Assembly (NCBI GenBank): GCA_005878385.1
Contig: VBMN01000073.1
Coordinates: 1 to 51,074 of the forward strand
Reading direction: 5' to 3'
From: Methanobacteriota archaeon
Lineage (GTDB): Archaea; Thermoplasmatota; Thermoplasmata; RBG-16-68-12
DNA length: 51,074 bases
A program made the position numbers and the translations under genes. Shown here piece after piece: positions 41,678-49,573 of this stretch (position 1 is its first letter; each line of letters starts with the position of its first letter). The notes beneath the pieces were generated by a model. The model was not told the origin of the DNA, did not search any database, and saw only the letters and a list, made by a program, of their open reading frames with translations.

Positions 41678-42022
41678 TCAACGCGCCCGGCCCCGATATC
41701 GGTCGGGCGGATACTTCGCCTCGTCCTTCTTCAGCTTCGCGAGCATCGCCTCGGAGAGATCCACCTTCAGCACGTTGGCCAGGCTGAATCCGTAAATAAG
41801 GACATCCGCCAGTTCCTCCTCGACGGCCAATCGATCCTCGGACGAAAGGTCTGCCAGCGTCGCGGATTCTCGCCATAGGAACACCTCCAACAGTTCGGAT
41901 GCCTCGATTGAAATCGCCATAGCGAGGTCTTTCGGCGAATGAAACCGCTCCCAATCCCTCGCGTGAACGAACTGACGCACGTGCTCCCGGAGCTCACCGA
42001 CGGACGTCGTCGCGTCAACCAT
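41678..42022 (-). CDS. MazG-like nucleotide pyrophosphohydrolase (all-alpha NTP-PPase)
   Basis: 114 aa with FVHARDWERFHSPKDLAMAISIEASELLEVF...EELADVLIY. Confidence 0.8.
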   Translation of the reverse strand: MVDATTSVGELREHVRQFVHARDWERFHSPKDLAMAISIEASELLEVFLWRESATLADLSSEDRLAVEEELADVLIYGFSLANVLKVDLSEAMLAKLKKDEAKYPPDRYRGRAR

Positions 42023-42151: not shown

Positions 42152-42556
42152 TCAGTCCCCCCGCAGTGCGAGGATGCGCGAAACGAGACTTGTGATCTCG
42201 TCCGCCTCGAATGGCTTGTTCACGTACCCGATCGCGCCGCGGCGTACGCTCTCGATCTCCGTGAAGCTGTCACCGAACGCGGTCATCAGGATCGCCCGCA
42301 GGTGGGGTTTCATGCGGCGAGCGGATTCGATCAACTCGACTCCGTTGGGTCCCGGCATGCGGTAGTCCGTGAGCAGCAGATCCACGTCGCCCTGGGCGAG
42401 TTTCTCGATGGCCTCCGGGGCACTCGCCGCCGTCACGACGGAGTAACCGACCACCTCGAACAGCTCAGCGAGGTTTTCGCGCACACCGTCGTCGTCATCG
42501 ACGATCAGGATGCACCCGCCTTCGATTGTCGTCTTTTCCGGCGCCAGGATCATCAT
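42152..42556 (-). CDS. Single-domain CheY-like response regulator
   Basis: ILIVDDDD, DLLLTDYRMPGPNG, AILMTAFGD, GYVNKPF (all canonical receiver residues). The ATG at 42556 lies downstream of the TATA palindrome. Confidence 0.88.
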   Translation of the reverse strand: MMILAPEKTTIEGGCILIVDDDDGVRENLAELFEVVGYSVVTAASAPEAIEKLAQGDVDLLLTDYRMPGPNGVELIESARRMKPHLRAILMTAFGDSFTEIESVRRGAIGYVNKPFEADEITSLVSRILALRGD

Positions 42557-42586
42557 CGTCCTTCCTGAGACGACGGATGGAGGCGC

Positions 42587-42602
42587 GGCGATATATATCG
42601 CC
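42587..42602 (-). promoter_or_regulatory. 16-nt perfect palindrome GGCGATATATATCGCC containing the TATA box of the CheY-like gene
   Basis: The ATATATAT core (42591-42598) is centred ~38 nt upstream of the ATG at 42556. The flanking GGCG/CGCC are exactly complementary. Confidence 0.5.
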
Positions 42603-42655
42603 CAGTTGAGCCCGGTTGACAAGCGCCGCGCGGGCGCGCGAAGCCTGTCAGTCCT

Positions 42656-43720
42656 TCATGATTTTGATATCAGCAATGAGGGAGACTTGTGCTCGGAGAG
42701 CACGCGTACGACGTGCCATGCTCGTTGCCCCGCGTCGGTAACGGAGTACCGTCCCGCGTCGACCTTGGTCAGCAGTCCGTCCGATTGGAGCTTCTGCAGA
42801 TGGAACGAAAGCTTCGACGACGAGTCCACGAAGCTCTTCTTCAGGATCGCGGAATACGCGACGGGTCCGGAGGCGAAGACAAAGCCAACGACGGCTCGGC
42901 GTATCGGGTTCGCGAGCGATTCGAGCATCCCCTGACGGACGTCAGGAGAAGCGCCCGCACCCGAGTCACCACCGACCTCGGAGGCGACCTCGGCGTCCAG
43001 CGACCGAAGGACCAAGGTGCCCCCCTTCGCGGCGCACTTCCCGCTCATGTGGCGGATCCAGGCTCGGAGGTCTTCCCGACCGTGAACGGCCTCGATCATG
43101 GACAGATCGTCCGCATAGACGACGGGGCGCTCGTTCGCGCTCAAATGCGTTTCGATCGCGCTGTTCAACTGGTACAGTTGCGCCGGCGCGAACACGTTCG
43201 GCGACGCGCCTTTCGCCGCGATCCGAAGGACCCGCGAAGCGCCAGGCGGAGGTCTTGCACGAGGCCCGAGGATCGCCAGCAGCGCACCACGCTTCGCCGC
43301 CTCCGATACGATTCCGGAAATGTCCGATTCGGTTCGCGTCGCGCCGAGCAGTGCTCGGGCGGTCCGCTCCTCCTCGACCATCCGCAAAGTCCGCCGGAGG
43401 ACCTCGAGGTCGTACGGCTTTTCGACGAAGTCGACCGCGCCGCCCTTCATCGCTTCGACCGCGGCGTCGATCGTGCCCTCGCCGGTGATCATCACCACGG
43501 CAGTCTCCGGCCTCACGACCCGGAGACGATGGAGGACATCGAGGCCGGTGGCTTTCGGCATCCGGAGGTCCAGGAGGGCCACATCGAACGACTCGCGCTC
43601 GACCGTGCGGAGCGCCTCGCCTCCGTCCGCGACGGTGACGATGGCGTGCCCGTCCTCCCGGAGCAGGCCGGCAAGCTCTTCCCGAAGGGTCGTGTCGTCA
43701 TCCGCGACGAGGATCTTCAT
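42656..43720 (-). CDS. Response regulator: receiver + DUF835-like (degenerate KaiC/RecA-like) domain + C-terminal ArsR-type winged helix
   Basis: Receiver: KILVADDD, DVALLDLRMP, VVMITG, FVEKPY. Middle: RVLRIAAKGASPNVFAPAQLYQLNSAIETHL...PVVYADDLSMIEAVHGREDLRAWIRHM. C-terminus: LANPIRRAVVGFV...LSFHLQKLQSDGLLTK. It overlaps the kinase stop by 4 nt (ATGA). Confidence 0.75.
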   Translation of the reverse strand: MKILVADDDTTLREELAGLLREDGHAIVTVADGGEALRTVERESFDVALLDLRMPKATGLDVLHRLRVVRPETAVVMITGEGTIDAAVEAMKGGAVDFVEKPYDLEVLRRTLRMVEEERTARALLGATRTESDISGIVSEAAKRGALLAILGPRARPPPGASRVLRIAAKGASPNVFAPAQLYQLNSAIETHLSANERPVVYADDLSMIEAVHGREDLRAWIRHMSGKCAAKGGTLVLRSLDAEVASEVGGDSGAGASPDVRQGMLESLANPIRRAVVGFVFASGPVAYSAILKKSFVDSSSKLSFHLQKLQSDGLLTKVDAGRYSVTDAGQRAWHVVRVLSEHKSPSLLISKS

Positions 43721-46113
43721 GCCGTCTCCGCGCGAGGAAGGAGGACCGTGACCGTAAACCCGCGCCCCGCCTCGGAGGTGACCTCGAGGGTGCCCCCATG
43801 CTCGGTCACGATATGCTTCGCGAGGAGAAGACCCAAACCGATTCGCTCCCCGTGCGCCTTCGTGGTCGAGAAAGGATCGAAGAGGTGAGCCAGGACCTCG
43901 GGGCTCACCCCGCTCCCCGTGTCCGAGACAACAATCGCGTACGCGCGGGGACGATCCTCGATGCGAACGCGGACGAATCCCTTCGTGGTCGAGTCAATCG
44001 CATTGTCAAGGAGGGTGACGATCACTTGCTGGATCTGGAGGGGGTCGACCTTCGTCAGCGCGGCGATTTCTCCCAGCTCGACCTCGAGGGTCACGCCTTT
44101 CTTCGGCTTCCTCCGAAGTTGTTCGACCGCGGATTCGGCGACGGATCGCAGGTCGGTCTCGATGGCATTGACCTGGCGACTCTTCGAAAGGCTCAGCAAC
44201 TCGCGGATGATCTCTGCCGCGCGACGTCGCTCCGTGTCGATCTTGTTGAGCTTGTCGAGTACGACCGGATCTTTCGCTCGTTTGCTTGCGGCGGACGTCA
44301 AGAGGGAAATGCTCGTGAGGGGTGTATTCAACTCGTGGGCAATGAAACCCGCCAAGTGGCCCATCGTGGCGAGCCGCTCCGCGTCCAAGAGGCGTTCTTG
44401 GCCACGCTTCCGGTCCATCGCCATCGCGACCTGCTCCGCCACGAAGTTCAAAACGCCCTTGTCCTCCTCGCCGAAGCGCACCCCCTCCGCATAGCTCTGG
44501 ACCACGATCACGCCAATCGTCTTCCCTTGGCTCACGAGCGGAGCGCCGACCCAGTCGACGGATGGGGGTCCGACGGAAACGACCTCTCCGTCCCGCACGA
44601 GGCCCTCGAAGACTTCCGGAGAGGCCAGGAGCGGGCGTCCCGTCCGAAGCACGTATTCGGTCAGGCCGCGCCCCAGCTCTTGCCGGGAAGGGGCGCTTTC
44701 CTCTTCGTCCACGAAGTACGGAAAATCCAACGCCTCTGCCGGTTCGTCGTACAAAGCGATGTAAAAGTTCGTGGCGGGCATGAGACCGCCGACGACTTGG
44801 TGAATCTGACTGTACAACTCGGGAAGGTCCTTCGCCGAATTCGCGGCTTCCGAGATCCGATAGACGGCGGACTGGATTGCCTCGGTCTTGCGTCGTTGGG
44901 AGACGTCCATCGCGGAACCGATCACCCTCACCGGGTGTCCGGTCGCATCGTGGAGGACGTAGCCTCGGTCCACGAGGGTCGCATACGTCCCGTCGCGCCG
45001 CCGAAACCGGTACTCCGCGTTCCACACGAAACCGCCGCTGCGGACCAGCTGGTCGATGCTCGTGACGACGCGCTCCTGGTCCTCCGGGTGCAGGTGTTCC
45101 GTCCACCAGGCTCCCGTCGGTTCAATTTCCTCCGGAGGATAGCCGAACACCTTCGAGACATTCTCGTTCACCCACAGGCCGTCCGTCTGGAGGTCCCAGT
45201 CCCATACCACGTCGTTCGTCGCACGGCCAAGGAGCCGGAACCGTTCCTCGCTCCGTCGGAGGGTCTCCTCGGTGCGCATCCGCTCGGACACGTCGAAGGC
45301 GACGCCGATCGTCCCGAGGATCGCGCCCTCCGAGGAACGGAGGGGTTCGAGGTGCACATCATACGTGCGGCCTTGCCAATCGATCTGCGTCGCGACGCCT
45401 TCGCCTGCCAAGGCCCGCCGGTGCGACGCGATCGGCTCCAGGTCGTCGTCGGGGATGTTGAAGTATTCGAAGAGGGTGAGGCCCCGCTCCCGGCTCCGAG
45501 ACGTGTCCAGGGTCCGGAATCCGCCGCCCATCGCGGACGTGACTCGAAGGTCCCGATCCGTGCTCCACAGGAGGACCGGCGCCTGCTGAAGGATCATCCG
45601 GAGGCGCGTCTCGCTCTGAGAGAGGCGCTCCTCGGCCGTCTTCCGTTCCGTGAGGGCTTGCGCCTGGGTCTGTTCGGTCTCGGCGAGGCGACGTCGGTTC
45701 GCCGCCTCCACGATGTGTTCCTGGACGATCGCGGGCAGGAGCTCCGTGTACCGCGGCGTCTTCACGATGTACGAGGTCGCGCCGTACCGGATGGCCTGCA
45801 GGGCGGCTTCCTCCCCGTCCGGCGGAACGACGAAGATCTTCGGGATCTCGGGGAACCGCTCGGCGAGGAGGTGGAGGACCTCGATCCCCGTCGCGTCGCG
45901 GAGCTTGCTGCCAATCACGAGCGCGTCGAAGCGCTGCGTCATCGCCAGATGCAGCGCCTGTTTCCCCGACGCGGCGGTCCGGACCAAACAGCCCTGCCGG
46001 GTCAGGGCAGCCACGCTGAGAATCTGGTGCTCTTCGTTTCCGTCGGCCACGAGGACGGCGAACGGCGTTTCGCCTTTCGTCCCCGCGACCTCGGAGGGAG
46101 TGGTCTGGGCCAT
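43717..46113 (-). CDS. Sensor histidine kinase: N-terminal receiver-like (apparent pseudo-receiver) + 2 PAS + GAF + HisKA + HATPase_c
   Basis: H-box FIAHELNTPL. N/G boxes LLDNAIDST, SDTGSGV, GLGLLLAK. PAS-like WSTDRDLR... and VWDWDLQTD.... GAF-like region ATNFYIALYDE.... The ATG at 46113 (M37 of the track ORF) is the first start downstream of a TATA-like box. Confidence 0.85.
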   Translation of the reverse strand: MAQTTPSEVAGTKGETPFAVLVADGNEEHQILSVAALTRQGCLVRTAASGKQALHLAMTQRFDALVIGSKLRDATGIEVLHLLAERFPEIPKIFVVPPDGEEAALQAIRYGATSYIVKTPRYTELLPAIVQEHIVEAANRRRLAETEQTQAQALTERKTAEERLSQSETRLRMILQQAPVLLWSTDRDLRVTSAMGGGFRTLDTSRSRERGLTLFEYFNIPDDDLEPIASHRRALAGEGVATQIDWQGRTYDVHLEPLRSSEGAILGTIGVAFDVSERMRTEETLRRSEERFRLLGRATNDVVWDWDLQTDGLWVNENVSKVFGYPPEEIEPTGAWWTEHLHPEDQERVVTSIDQLVRSGGFVWNAEYRFRRRDGTYATLVDRGYVLHDATGHPVRVIGSAMDVSQRRKTEAIQSAVYRISEAANSAKDLPELYSQIHQVVGGLMPATNFYIALYDEPAEALDFPYFVDEEESAPSRQELGRGLTEYVLRTGRPLLASPEVFEGLVRDGEVVSVGPPSVDWVGAPLVSQGKTIGVIVVQSYAEGVRFGEEDKGVLNFVAEQVAMAMDRKRGQERLLDAERLATMGHLAGFIAHELNTPLTSISLLTSAASKRAKDPVVLDKLNKIDTERRRAAEIIRELLSLSKSRQVNAIETDLRSVAESAVEQLRRKPKKGVTLEVELGEIAALTKVDPLQIQQVIVTLLDNAIDSTTKGFVRVRIEDRPRAYAIVVSDTGSGVSPEVLAHLFDPFSTTKAHGERIGLGLLLAKHIVTEHGGTLEVTSEAGRGFTVTVLLPRAETA

Positions 46114-46183
46114 GGGTGATCGGTGGGCGGGTGAACCGTCGCGACGAGGGCGCCGCGCGGACCGGATGCCATCCCACCGGCCC

Positions 46184-46193
46184 GTATAAAGGC
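46184..46193 (-). promoter_or_regulatory. TATA-like box upstream of the histidine kinase gene
   Basis: The minus strand reads CCTTTATACG, ~75 nt upstream of the ATG at 46113. It lies downstream of the track ORF's earlier Met codons, which argues against those starts. Confidence 0.35.
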
Positions 46194-46264
46194 CTACCGG
46201 GGACATTCGCGGTTTCGACACTATAGGGCGGGAGGACGGGAGCCGCGATCGGATTCGAACCTCA

Positions 46265-47065
46265 CTATGACGTCCCGGTGACGGCGCGGGTGACCTCGAA
46301 GCCGCCTTCCTCGAACGAGAGGGCGTAGTATCCGGTCTCGTGCTTCGTCGACCGCATCTTCACGACCCGGAGGCGTCGCTGGACGAAGAGGTCGGACGTG
46401 GGATGCATCTCAAGGGCGATGATGCCGTCCGCCAGGTAGGCCTCCTCCGGCGGGGCCGTCCCGCCCCCGAACGTGAGCGGTCGCTCCGAGATCAGGAACG
46501 TGAGCGGGCCGAGGTCCCGCAGCCACTCGAAGAGGAAGTACAACTCGGCCCGGCGGTCTTGCATCTTCGCCATCGTCTCGAGGACGTCGAGGGAATCGAC
46601 GACGAGGACGGAGATCGAATCCGCCTTCATCACGTTGTTGCAGTACATCTTGAAAAGCTCGAGCCAGGTGCCCCGCCCCTGGAGGTAGTTCAAGTTCTTT
46701 CGGATGCTCCCCATGTCGAGGGTCGTGATGTGTCGGGACGCGCGCTCGTCGGCCATGCCCAGGGACGCCATGTGTTCCAGCGTCAGGTCCTTCCCCTGCT
46801 CCAGGGTGAAGTACGCGGACTTGCGGCCGTCGCGGAGAGCGTTCTGATAGAGGATCGAGTAGGCGAAGGACGACTTCATCGTCCCAGGAGCGCCGTTCAG
46901 GAGGACGACGAATCCATCCGGGATTCCGCCGCCAATCACATCGTCCAGGCTTCGCGCGTACGTCTTGATGCGATTCCGCTCCGTCGGTCGACCTCCGAAA
47001 GGCGGATGCAGGGGCCCGACACGTAAGCCTTTCCCTCCCGTTCGCGCGTTGCGCACAATCTTCAA
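46265..47065 (-). CDS. KaiC-like / RecA-superfamily ATPase (single domain) with atypical Walker A
   Basis: SLDDVIGGGIPDGFVVLLNGAPGTMKSSF (Walker A with Met where the last Gly is expected), Walker B VLVVDSLD, C-terminal VVKMRSTKHETGYYALSF. The start is the TTG at 47065 or the GTG at 47056. The track ORF's N-terminal 180 aa are spurious. Confidence 0.75.
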   Translation of the reverse strand: MKIVRNARTGGKGLRVGPLHPPFGGRPTERNRIKTYARSLDDVIGGGIPDGFVVLLNGAPGTMKSSFAYSILYQNALRDGRKSAYFTLEQGKDLTLEHMASLGMADERASRHITTLDMGSIRKNLNYLQGRGTWLELFKMYCNNVMKADSISVLVVDSLDVLETMAKMQDRRAELYFLFEWLRDLGPLTFLISERPLTFGGGTAPPEEAYLADGIIALEMHPTSDLFVQRRLRVVKMRSTKHETGYYALSFEEGGFEVTRAVTGTS

Positions 47066-47071
47066 ATAGAC

Positions 47072-47713
47072 TTGGACCGGTGGTGCCGCGCGTTGGCGGA
47101 CGATGTCCTTGGCGCCATCGCCGCGACGGCGCGTGTGATCGGGGCCCTCGTGCTCCTGTTCTTCCTTCCTGGCTACCTGCTGATCAACGCCCTCTATCCG
47201 CGAAAAGGGGAACTGGACCGGGAGTACGATGGGCTGTACCGACTCACCCTCGGCATCGTCCTGTCGATCGCGGTGACGGTGTTCTGGTCGTTCTTGCTGA
47301 ACTCGTTCGGCGTGAACGGGTCGACGGGACTCGGGTATGTCGTCGGGCCGAACATCGCGGGCGGGCTCATCGGACTCTCGGCGGCGTTCTTCGGCCTCGG
47401 GTGGTGGCGGGGAGCGTATCCCTGGATGGCTCGCCTCCACCCCGCCCTCGCGCGGGTGCCGAAGCCGGGGCCTGGTGAACTGCTCACGGAAGAGGAGAGG
47501 GACCATCGCGTCCGCTTGAAGCTGCAAGAGCTCGCGGAGAAACGAGAGAGTTTGCGGCGGGCAATCAAGGATGCAGAACGCCGGATGCGGATGCAGTCCT
47601 CGGACGCGCGGACCCATTACGAAGAGGTGCGCGACCGCTCCCGCGTGGAACTGAAAGCGGTCGAGGCGAAGCTGAAGGAGCTCGAAGAGGAACGGGCCGC
47701 GGAGCTCTATTGA
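47072..47713 (+). CDS. Membrane protein (DUF1616-like N-terminal TM region) with C-terminal coiled coil
   Basis: TM segments (VIGALVLLFFLPGYLLINALYP..., LTLGIVLSIAVTVFWSFLL, IAGGLIGLSAAFFGLGWW) followed by the charged heptad-like RLKLQELAEKRESLRRAIKDAERR...LKELEEERAAELY. The start is uncertain: TTG at 47072, TTG at 47093 or GTG at 47135. Confidence 0.5.
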   Translation: MDRWCRALADDVLGAIAATARVIGALVLLFFLPGYLLINALYPRKGELDREYDGLYRLTLGIVLSIAVTVFWSFLLNSFGVNGSTGLGYVVGPNIAGGLIGLSAAFFGLGWWRGAYPWMARLHPALARVPKPGPGELLTEEERDHRVRLKLQELAEKRESLRRAIKDAERRMRMQSSDARTHYEEVRDRSRVELKAVEAKLKELEEERAAELY

Positions 47714-48685: not shown

Positions 48686-49573
48686 TCAGCGATCGTCATG
48701 GAGGCGGAGGAAATTGCCGACCACCTGCATGTACCGATCCCGTTCCTCCCACATGGGAAGGTGCGAGCTCTTCGGGAAGATGACAAGTTTCGAGCCCCGG
48801 ATCCCTCGATGCAAGGTGCGAGCAATTCGCGGCGTGATCTCGTCATAGCGACCGCCCGTGACCAGGGTGGGCGTGCGGATCCTGGGAAGTTGATCCGTGA
48901 TGTCCCAGTATCGCAGCGAGCCATGGACCGCGAACTCGCTGGGCCCCCACATCGTCCGGTATACAGGGAGACTGAGTTCCGCCATCGATTTCGTCAGCTC
49001 GGGTGGCCAGGTCCGAAGGCGACAGATGTGGCGTCGGTAGAAGACCATCGCCGCCCGCTGATAGGCCGGATCGTCGAAGGCCTCTTGTCGTTCCAGCCGA
49101 GCGATCGTCCGCTGCACTCGGGTCGGCAACTGGGTCACCAGGCGGCGGAGTTCGGCGTTCGCCACCGGGACGCTCGGAAGTCCGCTCGCGATGACGAGGC
49201 TCCGCAGGTGCCGTTGGTACTTGAGGGCATAGGCGATCGCGAGCATGCCCCCGTAGCTGTTCCCCAGGAGATGGATCTTGCCAAGGCCCAAGGCTCGGCG
49301 GAATCCCTCCACCTCTTCGACGGCCCGTTCGATCGTGAAGAGGGACGTGCCTTTCGGTCGGTCGCTCGTCCCACATCCGAGCTGGTCATAGAACACGACC
49401 CGGTAGCCGAACCGCGCGAGGTCCGCGAGGCAGGTGAGGTATCCGTGCGGCACGCCCGGACCGCCATGGAGACAGAGCAGGGTGCCCCGATCCGCTGCGC
49501 CGAACGCCTCCCAGGCCAAGCGATATCCCAGGACCTCGGCGCGGCCTTTCGCGGATGGTCGAACCGTTCCCAT
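48686..49573 (-). CDS. pip: Proline iminopeptidase (alpha/beta hydrolase, S33 family)
   Basis: LLCLHGGPG, YDQLGCGTS, nucleophile elbow LLGNSYGG, C-terminal SSHLPMWEE. Confidence 0.8.
   Translation of the reverse strand: MGTVRPSAKGRAEVLGYRLAWEAFGAADRGTLLCLHGGPGVPHGYLTCLADLARFGYRVVFYDQLGCGTSDRPKGTSLFTIERAVEEVEGFRRALGLGKIHLLGNSYGGMLAIAYALKYQRHLRSLVIASGLPSVPVANAELRRLVTQLPTRVQRTIARLERQEAFDDPAYQRAAMVFYRRHICRLRTWPPELTKSMAELSLPVYRTMWGPSEFAVHGSLRYWDITDQLPRIRTPTLVTGGRYDEITPRIARTLHRGIRGSKLVIFPKSSHLPMWEERDRYMQVVGNFLRLHDDR

Follow-up and report, generated by a model that had tools for sequence, protein, structure and literature searches.

Organization of the locus

We analyzed a window of 51,074 nucleotides (contig VBMN01000073.1 of assembly GCA_005878385.1) from an uncultured soil Thermoplasmata archaeon, in which four consecutive minus-strand genes encode a KaiC-like ATPase, a histidine kinase, a response regulator that joins a receiver domain (REC), a DUF835-like domain and a winged helix-turn-helix (wHTH), and a stand-alone receiver (Table 1). 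An earlier note on this DNA had read the four genes as one circuit, modeled on the output wiring of the cyanobacterial clock, in which the state of the ATPase would be read both by the kinase and by the DUF835 domain of the regulator. The four genes in a row and the domains ascribed to them were confirmed by the list of open reading frames (ORFs) and by a Pfam scan; compared across related loci, however, the genes look like an ordinary kinase-regulator cassette beside a KaiC-like gene of the genome backbone. The kinase, the regulator coupled to it and the stand-alone receiver are likely to constitute a two-component cassette lying between two convergent backbone genes, the KaiC-like gene and RNase_H_2.

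Table 1. Features of the cassette and its surroundings (positions in the window)
Feature	Position	Strand	Basis or remark
Stand-alone receiver, 134 amino acids	42152-42556	-	Response_reg, 93.9 bits
TATA box of the stand-alone receiver gene, inside perfect 16-nucleotide palindrome GGCGATATATATCGCC	42587-42602	-	Sequence
Element TGTCAAC-N6-CTCAAC, candidate operator	42605-42621	-	Directly upstream of the receiver TATA box
REC-DUF835-wHTH response regulator, 354 amino acids	42656-43720	-	Pfam
Regulator wHTH	42713-42925	-	DUF7347, 28.8 bits (cut-off 27.6)
Regulator DUF835-like domain	42965-43345	-	Pfam, 15.2 bits (cut-off 33.1, E = 0.019); hhalign
Regulator REC	43385-43714	-	Pfam REC, 97 bits
ATGA overlap of kinase stop and regulator start	43717-43720	-	Sequence
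Cytoplasmic histidine kinase, 798 amino acids	43717-46113	-	Mechanical ORF reaches 46221
Pseudo-receiver domain of the kinase	45730-46056	-	Response_reg, 49.8 bits
TTTATA box of the kinase-regulator unit	46185-46190	-	77 nucleotides upstream of the kinase ATG
Conserved GCGAAT, upstream of TTTATA	46205-46210	-	Spacers of relatives
KaiC/RecA-like ATPase, single domain, 266 amino acids	46265-47065	-	Pfam PF06745, 107.3 bits (cut-off 26.6)
Walker A GAPGTMKS, residues 58-65 of the KaiC-like protein	46872-46895	-	Deviant motif
DUF1616 membrane protein gene	47072-47713	+	Pfam PF07760, 42.8 bits

The Pfam profiles for KaiC, Response_reg, PAS, GAF, HisKA and HATPase_c are all matched above their cut-offs, and those for HTH_20 and DUF835 fall below threshold in the window protein. 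The last two assignments are taken up with the regulator, below.

Cassette variation within a conserved backbone

Loci were collected by anchoring on the regulator and on the KaiC-like protein, which yielded more than 100 related Thermoplasmata loci; the nearest are metagenome-assembled genomes labeled Thermoplasmata or Methanobacteriota (isolates EA_x, RBG_16_67_27 and others). All related loci follow the same order, namely Pelota, (Endo_dU), PTH2, DUF1616, KaiC, the cassette, RNase_H_2 and TGT, and within this block variation is confined to the cassette between KaiC and RNase_H_2. Adjacency to KaiC was found only in the clade that shares approximately 15 kb of syntenic housekeeping genes; given this synteny, the conserved adjacency says nothing about function, and conservation of the KaiC-kinase pair weighs no more than conservation of the PTH2-kinase pair. 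The gene-neighborhood survey that the earlier note had proposed for the KaiC linkage was uninformative inside the synteny block, and beyond the block the linkage was not conserved. The proposed circuit thus fails the test of conserved linkage that the note itself had set for it.

Cassette content was compared in 40 loci, anchored on KaiC, that reach from KaiC to RNase_H_2 (near-duplicate contigs are included, so the counts are approximate). The kinase, regulator and receiver, with or without MazG, are found together in 25 of the 40, and seven loci carry the regulator, the receiver and MazG with the kinase missing. The remaining classes are smaller: the kinase only (3/40), only a kinase fragment (2/40), the kinase with one or more receivers and the DUF835 regulator missing (2/40), and a single empty locus (L088; 1/40), where 14 bp separate the convergent KaiC and RNase_H_2 genes. 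The three classes with only a kinase, a kinase fragment or a kinase plus receivers make up the seven loci without a DUF835 regulator. Every class but the empty one was seen in at least two contigs. The KaiC-like gene is present in all 40 loci, whatever the cassette contains. The kinase/regulator cassette is a dispensable signaling unit, and the KaiC-like gene is part of the conserved genome backbone.

Elsewhere in the backbone, the stretch between Endo_dU and Pelota holds an alpha/beta-hydrolase gene in the window (48686-49573, minus strand; Abhydrolase_1, 124 bits). This slot is variable; in several relatives it is empty or holds a glyoxalase-like gene (L001).

Among the relatives some kinases are truncated, some regulator ORFs are split and single genes have been lost, which could be taken to mean that in the window genome the cassette is in decay and has ceased to function. 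All three cassette ORFs of the window are uninterrupted and retain their catalytic or phospho-acceptor residues, the family of regulators shows strong conservation (mean column identity 73% over 40 sequences), and the cassette promoters are conserved, so that we regard decay here as extremely unlikely.

The REC-DUF835-wHTH regulator

The overlap between kinase and regulator described in the earlier note is present, and through it the regulator is translationally coupled to the kinase. The regulator's receiver is canonical: residues D8, D9, D51, T79 and K101 do not vary across 40 sequences and align with the catalytic residues of CheY. At the other end of the protein, the DUF7347 profile exceeds its cut-off in the window regulator and HTH_20 falls just short, and both profiles match all 40 of the 40 family members (best E approximately 2e-8). 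The canonical receiver and the ArsR-type wHTH that had been noted for this protein are thus borne out, and from its sequence the regulator is predicted to be a DNA-binding protein with an ArsR-like winged helix.

The middle domain is less easily recognized. A direct Pfam match to DUF835 (PF05763) falls below the cut-off in the window regulator, and only 9/40 close homologs match that family at E < 0.1; we rejected this match as insufficient, taken alone, to assign the domain. We therefore rely on a search with the C-terminal 234 residues of the regulator against 1.8 billion cluster representatives, which returned a broad set of proteins of approximately 340-400 amino acids. Six of the eight receiver-containing hits that were scanned have the architecture REC-DUF835-DUF7347, with DUF835 above its cut-off (34-65 bits), and the E values for DUF835 in these distant homologs of the middle region range from 1e-8 to 1e-18. 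When the middle domains of the close clade were compared with those of the distant proteins using hhalign, they aligned over 84 columns with a probability of 98.2% (E = 6e-14); because these relatives themselves pass the DUF835 cut-off, the middle domain of the regulator is a diverged DUF835. The DUF835-like assignment in the earlier note, weak in Pfam directly, is upheld by this profile-profile comparison.

A fold search with the whole regulator was dominated by the receiver and was uninformative on the middle domain (the top matches, NtrC1, NtrX and LuxO, were driven by the receiver, with a template modeling [TM] score of approximately 0.33), and the middle domain was therefore modeled alone. 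The model is a confident one, with a predicted local distance difference test (pLDDT) score of 87.5, and its top matches in the PDB are RecA, KaiC, FlaH and Rad51, all of them weak (E = 0.014-0.2, TM 0.43-0.53). These matches to a predicted structure fit the label of 'inactivated KaiC' that has been given to DUF835 without proving it. Reading the sequence of the domain by eye, we saw no GK[ST] or P-loop motif, and when a profile of the C-terminal part of the regulator, DUF835 together with the wHTH, was compared with that of the neighboring KaiC family, the probability was 2% and only the Walker B strand was aligned.

In six of the kinase-less relatives (L106, L148, L149, L154, L158 and L162) the cassette promoter is kept, and residues D8, D9, D51 and K101 of the regulator are intact. 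The kinase-less variants imply either that the regulator is phosphorylated by a kinase encoded elsewhere or that it has a role independent of phosphorylation.

A wider family coupled to kinases

Distant relatives of the regulator (21-42% identity) were found by genome scan at 56 loci in Thermoplasmata, Hadarchaeota and Hydrothermarchaeota. The regulator has the full REC-DUF835-wHTH architecture at 47/56 of these loci, and the other 9/56 encode a short REC-wHTH protein without DUF835. Thirty-seven of the distant REC-DUF835-wHTH genes have at least 1.5 kb of upstream sequence, and in 33 of these a histidine kinase lies directly upstream on the same strand, frequently with a 4-bp overlap.

An iterated KaiC/RecA profile gave a hit in the flanks of eight of the 47 full-length loci, a count that we rejected as inflated, because Pfam identified four of the genes as the recombinases RadA or RadB. 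Four of the 47 then remain with a KaiC-family or GvpD-like gene, three at a distance of 1.9-6.3 kb and one 79 bp downstream; the latter, the sole adjacent KaiC-like gene in the distant loci, scores 20.9 bits, below the Pfam cut-off. The conserved functional partner of REC-DUF835-wHTH regulators is the kinase, not KaiC. These regulators form a broad, kinase-coupled family of predicted DNA-binding proteins in uncultured Thermoplasmata and Hadarchaeota.

The short regulators (approximately 213-231 amino acids, with a KLSFHL-type winged helix and no DUF835) occur at L036, L038, L039, L042, L044, L045, L055, L065 and L075, mostly in Hydrothermarchaeota; at L065 a bona fide KaiC gene (189 bits) lies 1.1 kb downstream. 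At another distant locus, three tandem KaiC-family genes (L031, 2305-4787, minus strand) lie 4.6-6.3 kb upstream of the kinase-regulator pair, on the opposite strand.

The histidine kinase and the stand-alone receiver

The kinase contains, each above its Pfam cut-off, Response_reg, PAS_4, PAS_3, GAF_2, HisKA and HATPase_c domains, in agreement with the earlier description of a protein of approximately 800 amino acids with a receiver-like N-terminus, two PAS domains, a GAF domain and a kinase core. Its translation most probably begins at the ATG at 46113, because orthologous ORFs begin with MAQTT, at the pseudo-receiver. In that N-terminal domain, D13, D57 and T87 of CheY are replaced by G, G and V/P, respectively; the position equivalent to D57 is G, A or S in approximately 72 of 80 kinase orthologs, and the pseudo-receiver is thus real and conserved.

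Orthologous kinases vary in length from 798 amino acids to 1,467 and 1,764 amino acids through repeated expansion of PAS/GAF domains (L086, 9847-14250; L087, 9848-15142), and one ortholog of 1,012 amino acids (L001, 4966-8004) is without the N-terminal pseudo-receiver. In one lineage (L004, 6340-6615; L005, 508-783) the kinase has shrunk to a HATPase_c fragment of 91 amino acids, and the KaiC-like gene, the regulator and the stand-alone receiver are intact.

The stand-alone receiver, which had been called CheY, has a CheY-like fold and the canonical D, D, T and K residues of a receiver when aligned with CheY. That part of the description stands; an identity as the chemotaxis protein was rejected, the NCBIfam model CheY_Halo scoring 52.6 bits against a cut-off of 200, and no che genes were found in the window neighborhood or in related loci. 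In the window the receiver gene is followed directly by a MazG-like gene (41678-42022). Several relatives have a small stand-alone HTH_20 (ArsR-like) gene after the receiver (L001, 9587-9910; L004, 8191-8556; L086, 15804-16169; L087, 16717-17070), which the window lacks.

Promoters and a candidate operator

The KaiC-like gene and the kinase are separated by a spacer of 151 bp (46113-46265). Downstream of KaiC in the relatives, TTTATA is present in 56/56 distinct spacers, and GCGAAT lies upstream of it in 41/56; in the kinase-less variants the same TTTATA promoter stands directly before the regulator. A conserved leader of approximately 50 nucleotides follows the TTTATA/GCGAAT elements in this spacer; in relatives an inverted repeat lies within it (for example, CGCGAGGGCATCCTCGCG). 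There are probably three transcription units, comprising KaiC, the kinase with the regulator, and the stand-alone receiver.

The palindrome around the TATA box of the receiver gene, GGCGATATATATCGCC, is real, as the earlier note had observed; the TATA box is kept in relatives and the palindromic flanks are not. A role for the palindromic TATA box as a conserved operator was rejected on that ground.

Directly upstream of the same TATA box is the element TGTCAAC-N6-CTCAAC, which has one match in the 51-kb window (0.01 expected by chance). In 25 of the 29 distinct regulator-receiver spacers of the relatives, the distance from the start of TGTCAA to the TATA box is exactly 24 nucleotides. We consider the winged-helix regulator a candidate to bind this element; so sharply conserved a candidate operator offers a direct handle for a DNA-binding experiment.

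The KaiC-like ATPase and its divergent neighbor

The KaiC match covers profile positions 1-227 of 231 and comprises one domain only, in keeping with the single-domain ATPase first described. In the PDB the protein matches KaiC chains (E = 3e-25 to 1e-9), and it also matches PH0186, PH0284 and SSO2452, which are single-domain proteins of archaea. The NCBIfam models for circadian KaiC score 78.6 bits (cut-off 408) and 30.8 bits (cut-off 546), both well short of a match. Orthologs of the KaiC-like protein share 66-92% identity, against 52-87% for the regulator, as is expected of a core gene.

The P-loop of this very highly conserved protein is unusual. Its Walker A motif retains the Lys and Ser and has Met at the second Gly of GxxxxGK[ST], a position at which Gly is replaced in 17/17 orthologs examined (in one of them by Leu). 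The Lys and Ser of Walker A, the Walker B residue D157 (in VLVVDSLD) and the catalytic E89 (in TLEQ) are invariant across the orthologs.

The start codon of the KaiC-like gene is TTG 47065 or GTG 47056, and the predicted start of the divergent DUF1616 gene (TTG 47072) is thus only approximately 6-15 bp away. Either the promoters of the two genes lie inside each other's coding regions or one of the starts is mis-assigned. Among the relatives, gene callers differ on the KaiC start, giving products of 224-276 amino acids.

DUF1616 adjoins KaiC divergently in every related locus that reaches that far, the cassette-free L088 included, and the 6 bp between their starts suggests overlapping divergent control regions. 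The two genes could accordingly form a separate module unrelated to the two-component cassette, a proposal that we regard as possible although doubtful: invariance is just as complete for other neighbors, among them the housekeeping genes PTH2 and Pelota, so that the pairing may be plain synteny; the KaiC-family genes of the distant loci have no accompanying DUF1616; and DUF1616 has no assigned function. Highly conserved, deviant in its Walker A motif and paired with DUF1616, the KaiC-like gene is an uncharacterized core gene of the lineage.

Relation of the KaiC-like gene to the cassette

In our preferred interpretation the KaiC-like gene is probably an independently maintained backbone gene, and its adjacency reflects the position of the cassette rather than any demonstrated coupling. 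Several points weigh against this interpretation, or against details of the scheme that we attach to it. The cassette stays beside KaiC in most lineages, and in the seven kinase-less variants the regulator, its phospho-acceptor site intact, lies 125 bp downstream of KaiC, which leaves room for a link between KaiC and the regulator. Transcription from KaiC may read through into the kinase gene, because no terminator was identified in the spacer between them (the scan was of the sigma-70 promoter/intrinsic terminator type, which is not applicable to an archaeon). The loci counted are metagenomic and not phylogenetically independent. Finally, we infer, and do not observe, the operator role of the conserved element, the oligomerization of DUF835 and the role of the receiver as a phosphate sink.

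The circuit proposed in the earlier note would place the KaiC-like ATPase upstream, as an input whose state (nucleotide or oligomeric) would be read by the pseudo-receiver and by DUF835, by analogy with KaiC-CikA/SasA-RpaA. The parts named for it are present (a KaiC ATPase, a kinase with a GAF domain and a pseudo-receiver, a DNA-binding regulator with DUF835, and a receiver), and the four genes are adjacent and co-directional in the window and in most relatives. The fold of DUF835 is RecA/KaiC-like, if with weak significance, and the claim that DUF835 is a degenerate KaiC module agrees with the literature, in which it is listed as inactivated KaiC (PMC5847659). The kinase-less variants retain the regulator beside KaiC, and KaiC homologs of Pseudomonas virtually always adjoin histidine kinases (bioRxiv 10.1101/2022.01.26.477890). 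The wiring itself finds no such support, failing on linkage, on the variability of the cassette, on the pairing with kinases and on the cassette's own promoter: KaiC is kept where the cassette is partly or wholly gone, the whole surrounding region is syntenic and the adjacency uninformative, among distant regulators of the family the partner is a kinase rather than KaiC, and the conserved TTTATA promoter separates KaiC from the kinase. No hit to the KaiB family was found within approximately 8-9 kb of the cassette in six Pfam-labeled related loci (the rest of the window was not scanned), nor did the Pfam scan find a SasA-type thioredoxin-like domain in the kinase, and the comparison of the regulator's DUF835 and wHTH with the neighboring KaiC family was not significant. 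We judge such a circuit to be unlikely. Had it held, it would have been a concrete, testable case of the proposed archaeal KaiC signaling hub.

In a narrower version, DUF835 would co-assemble with, or dock onto, rings of the KaiC-like protein, and the state of the ATPase would gate DNA binding by the phosphorylatable regulator. This residual cross-talk is suggested mainly by the kinase-less variants, which keep the regulator beside KaiC with its receiver intact, and we think it very improbable. If true, it would define an archaeal circuit that joins KaiC-type and two-component signaling, of which the kinase-less variants would be the minimal form.

Proposed mechanism of the cassette

Under the preferred interpretation, that of a two-component cassette beside a backbone gene, the cytoplasmic kinase would sense a cue inside the cell by way of its PAS and GAF domains, and the N-terminal pseudo-receiver might modulate this. 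The histidine of HisKA would be autophosphorylated and the phosphate then passed to D51 of the REC-DUF835-wHTH regulator. Phosphorylation would alter the self-association of the apparently RecA-like, P-loop-less DUF835, which would position the ArsR-like winged helix on DNA and so change its binding; one candidate target is TGTCAAC-N6-CTCAAC, at its fixed distance of 24 nucleotides before the receiver gene's TATA box. The stand-alone receiver may in turn be a second acceptor of phosphate, acting as a sink or as a branch of its own, and so provide feedback.

Comparison with known systems

Circadian KaiC of cyanobacteria has tandem CI and CII domains, is approximately 500 amino acids long, and has the KaiB (and KaiA) genes alongside. 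Of its output proteins, SasA carries a KaiB-like/thioredoxin-like N-terminal domain, CikA is a GAF-kinase with a C-terminal pseudo-receiver, and RpaA is of the OmpR type. The parts at the window locus resemble this clock output only at the coarsest level, that is, a KaiC nucleoside triphosphatase, a kinase with a GAF domain and a pseudo-receiver, and a DNA-binding regulator. Whereas cyanobacterial KaiC has two domains, the KaiC-like protein of the window has one; neither a KaiA nor a KaiB gene was called nearby in the related loci examined; the pseudo-receiver is N-terminal in the window kinase and C-terminal in CikA; and the DNA-binding domain is of the ArsR/DUF7347/HTH_20 type (no Trans_reg_C match), in contrast to RpaA, whose domain is OmpR-like. 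On each of the defining features that were tested, the analogy with cyanobacteria breaks down.

NtrC-type regulators share with the window regulator the layout of a receiver, a central domain (of P-loop fold, in the window regulator only by prediction) and a C-terminal helix-turn-helix, and the resemblance is one of form only. Their central domain is AAA+; that of the window regulator is apparently RecA-like without a Walker A motif, and is therefore not expected to hydrolyze ATP. To our knowledge, archaea have no sigma-54.

In Pseudomonas, KaiC homologs are found virtually always beside histidine kinases and often beside single-domain regulators (bioRxiv 10.1101/2022.01.26.477890), so that the gene set of KaiC homolog, histidine kinase and single-domain receiver is shared with the window and is not new in itself. 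The window differs in that its KaiC is single-domain, a promoter lies between KaiC and the kinase, and linkage does not extend across the wider family.

An archaeal system of like composition is FilI-FilR1/FilR2 of Methanosaeta harundinacea, as summarized in PMC5847659, in which a kinase is likewise paired with one wHTH regulator and one stand-alone receiver. On that summary, the domain order differs (wHTH-DUF1724-REC in FilR1, REC-DUF835-wHTH in the window) and the middle domains are unrelated.

KaiC-like ATPases have been proposed as signaling hubs in archaea (Makarova, Galperin and Koonin 2017, as cited in PMC5847659), and the premise on KaiC hubs and DUF835 from which the earlier note started matches the account given in that later paper. 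As far as the proposal is described there, the window shares with it a single-domain KaiC ATPase beside signaling genes and a putatively KaiC-derived domain fused to a receiver; it differs in that the adjacency in the window is explained by backbone synteny, the cassette coming and going while KaiC stays.

DNA-binding response regulators are rare in archaea (PMC5847659), and a close precedent for the window regulator is the archaeal REC-DUF835 class, designated 'DUF835 (iKaiC)' and recorded from Methanomicrobia and Thermoplasmata by Galperin et al. (2018; PMC5847659, Table 2). Regulators of this class were thus already catalogued in 2018. Shared with the class are an N-terminal canonical receiver followed by DUF835, a host from the Thermoplasmata and a neighboring kinase. 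The window regulator differs in its DUF835, which has diverged to below the Pfam cut-off, and in adding a winged helix of the ArsR/DUF7347 type that is absent from the 2018 table.

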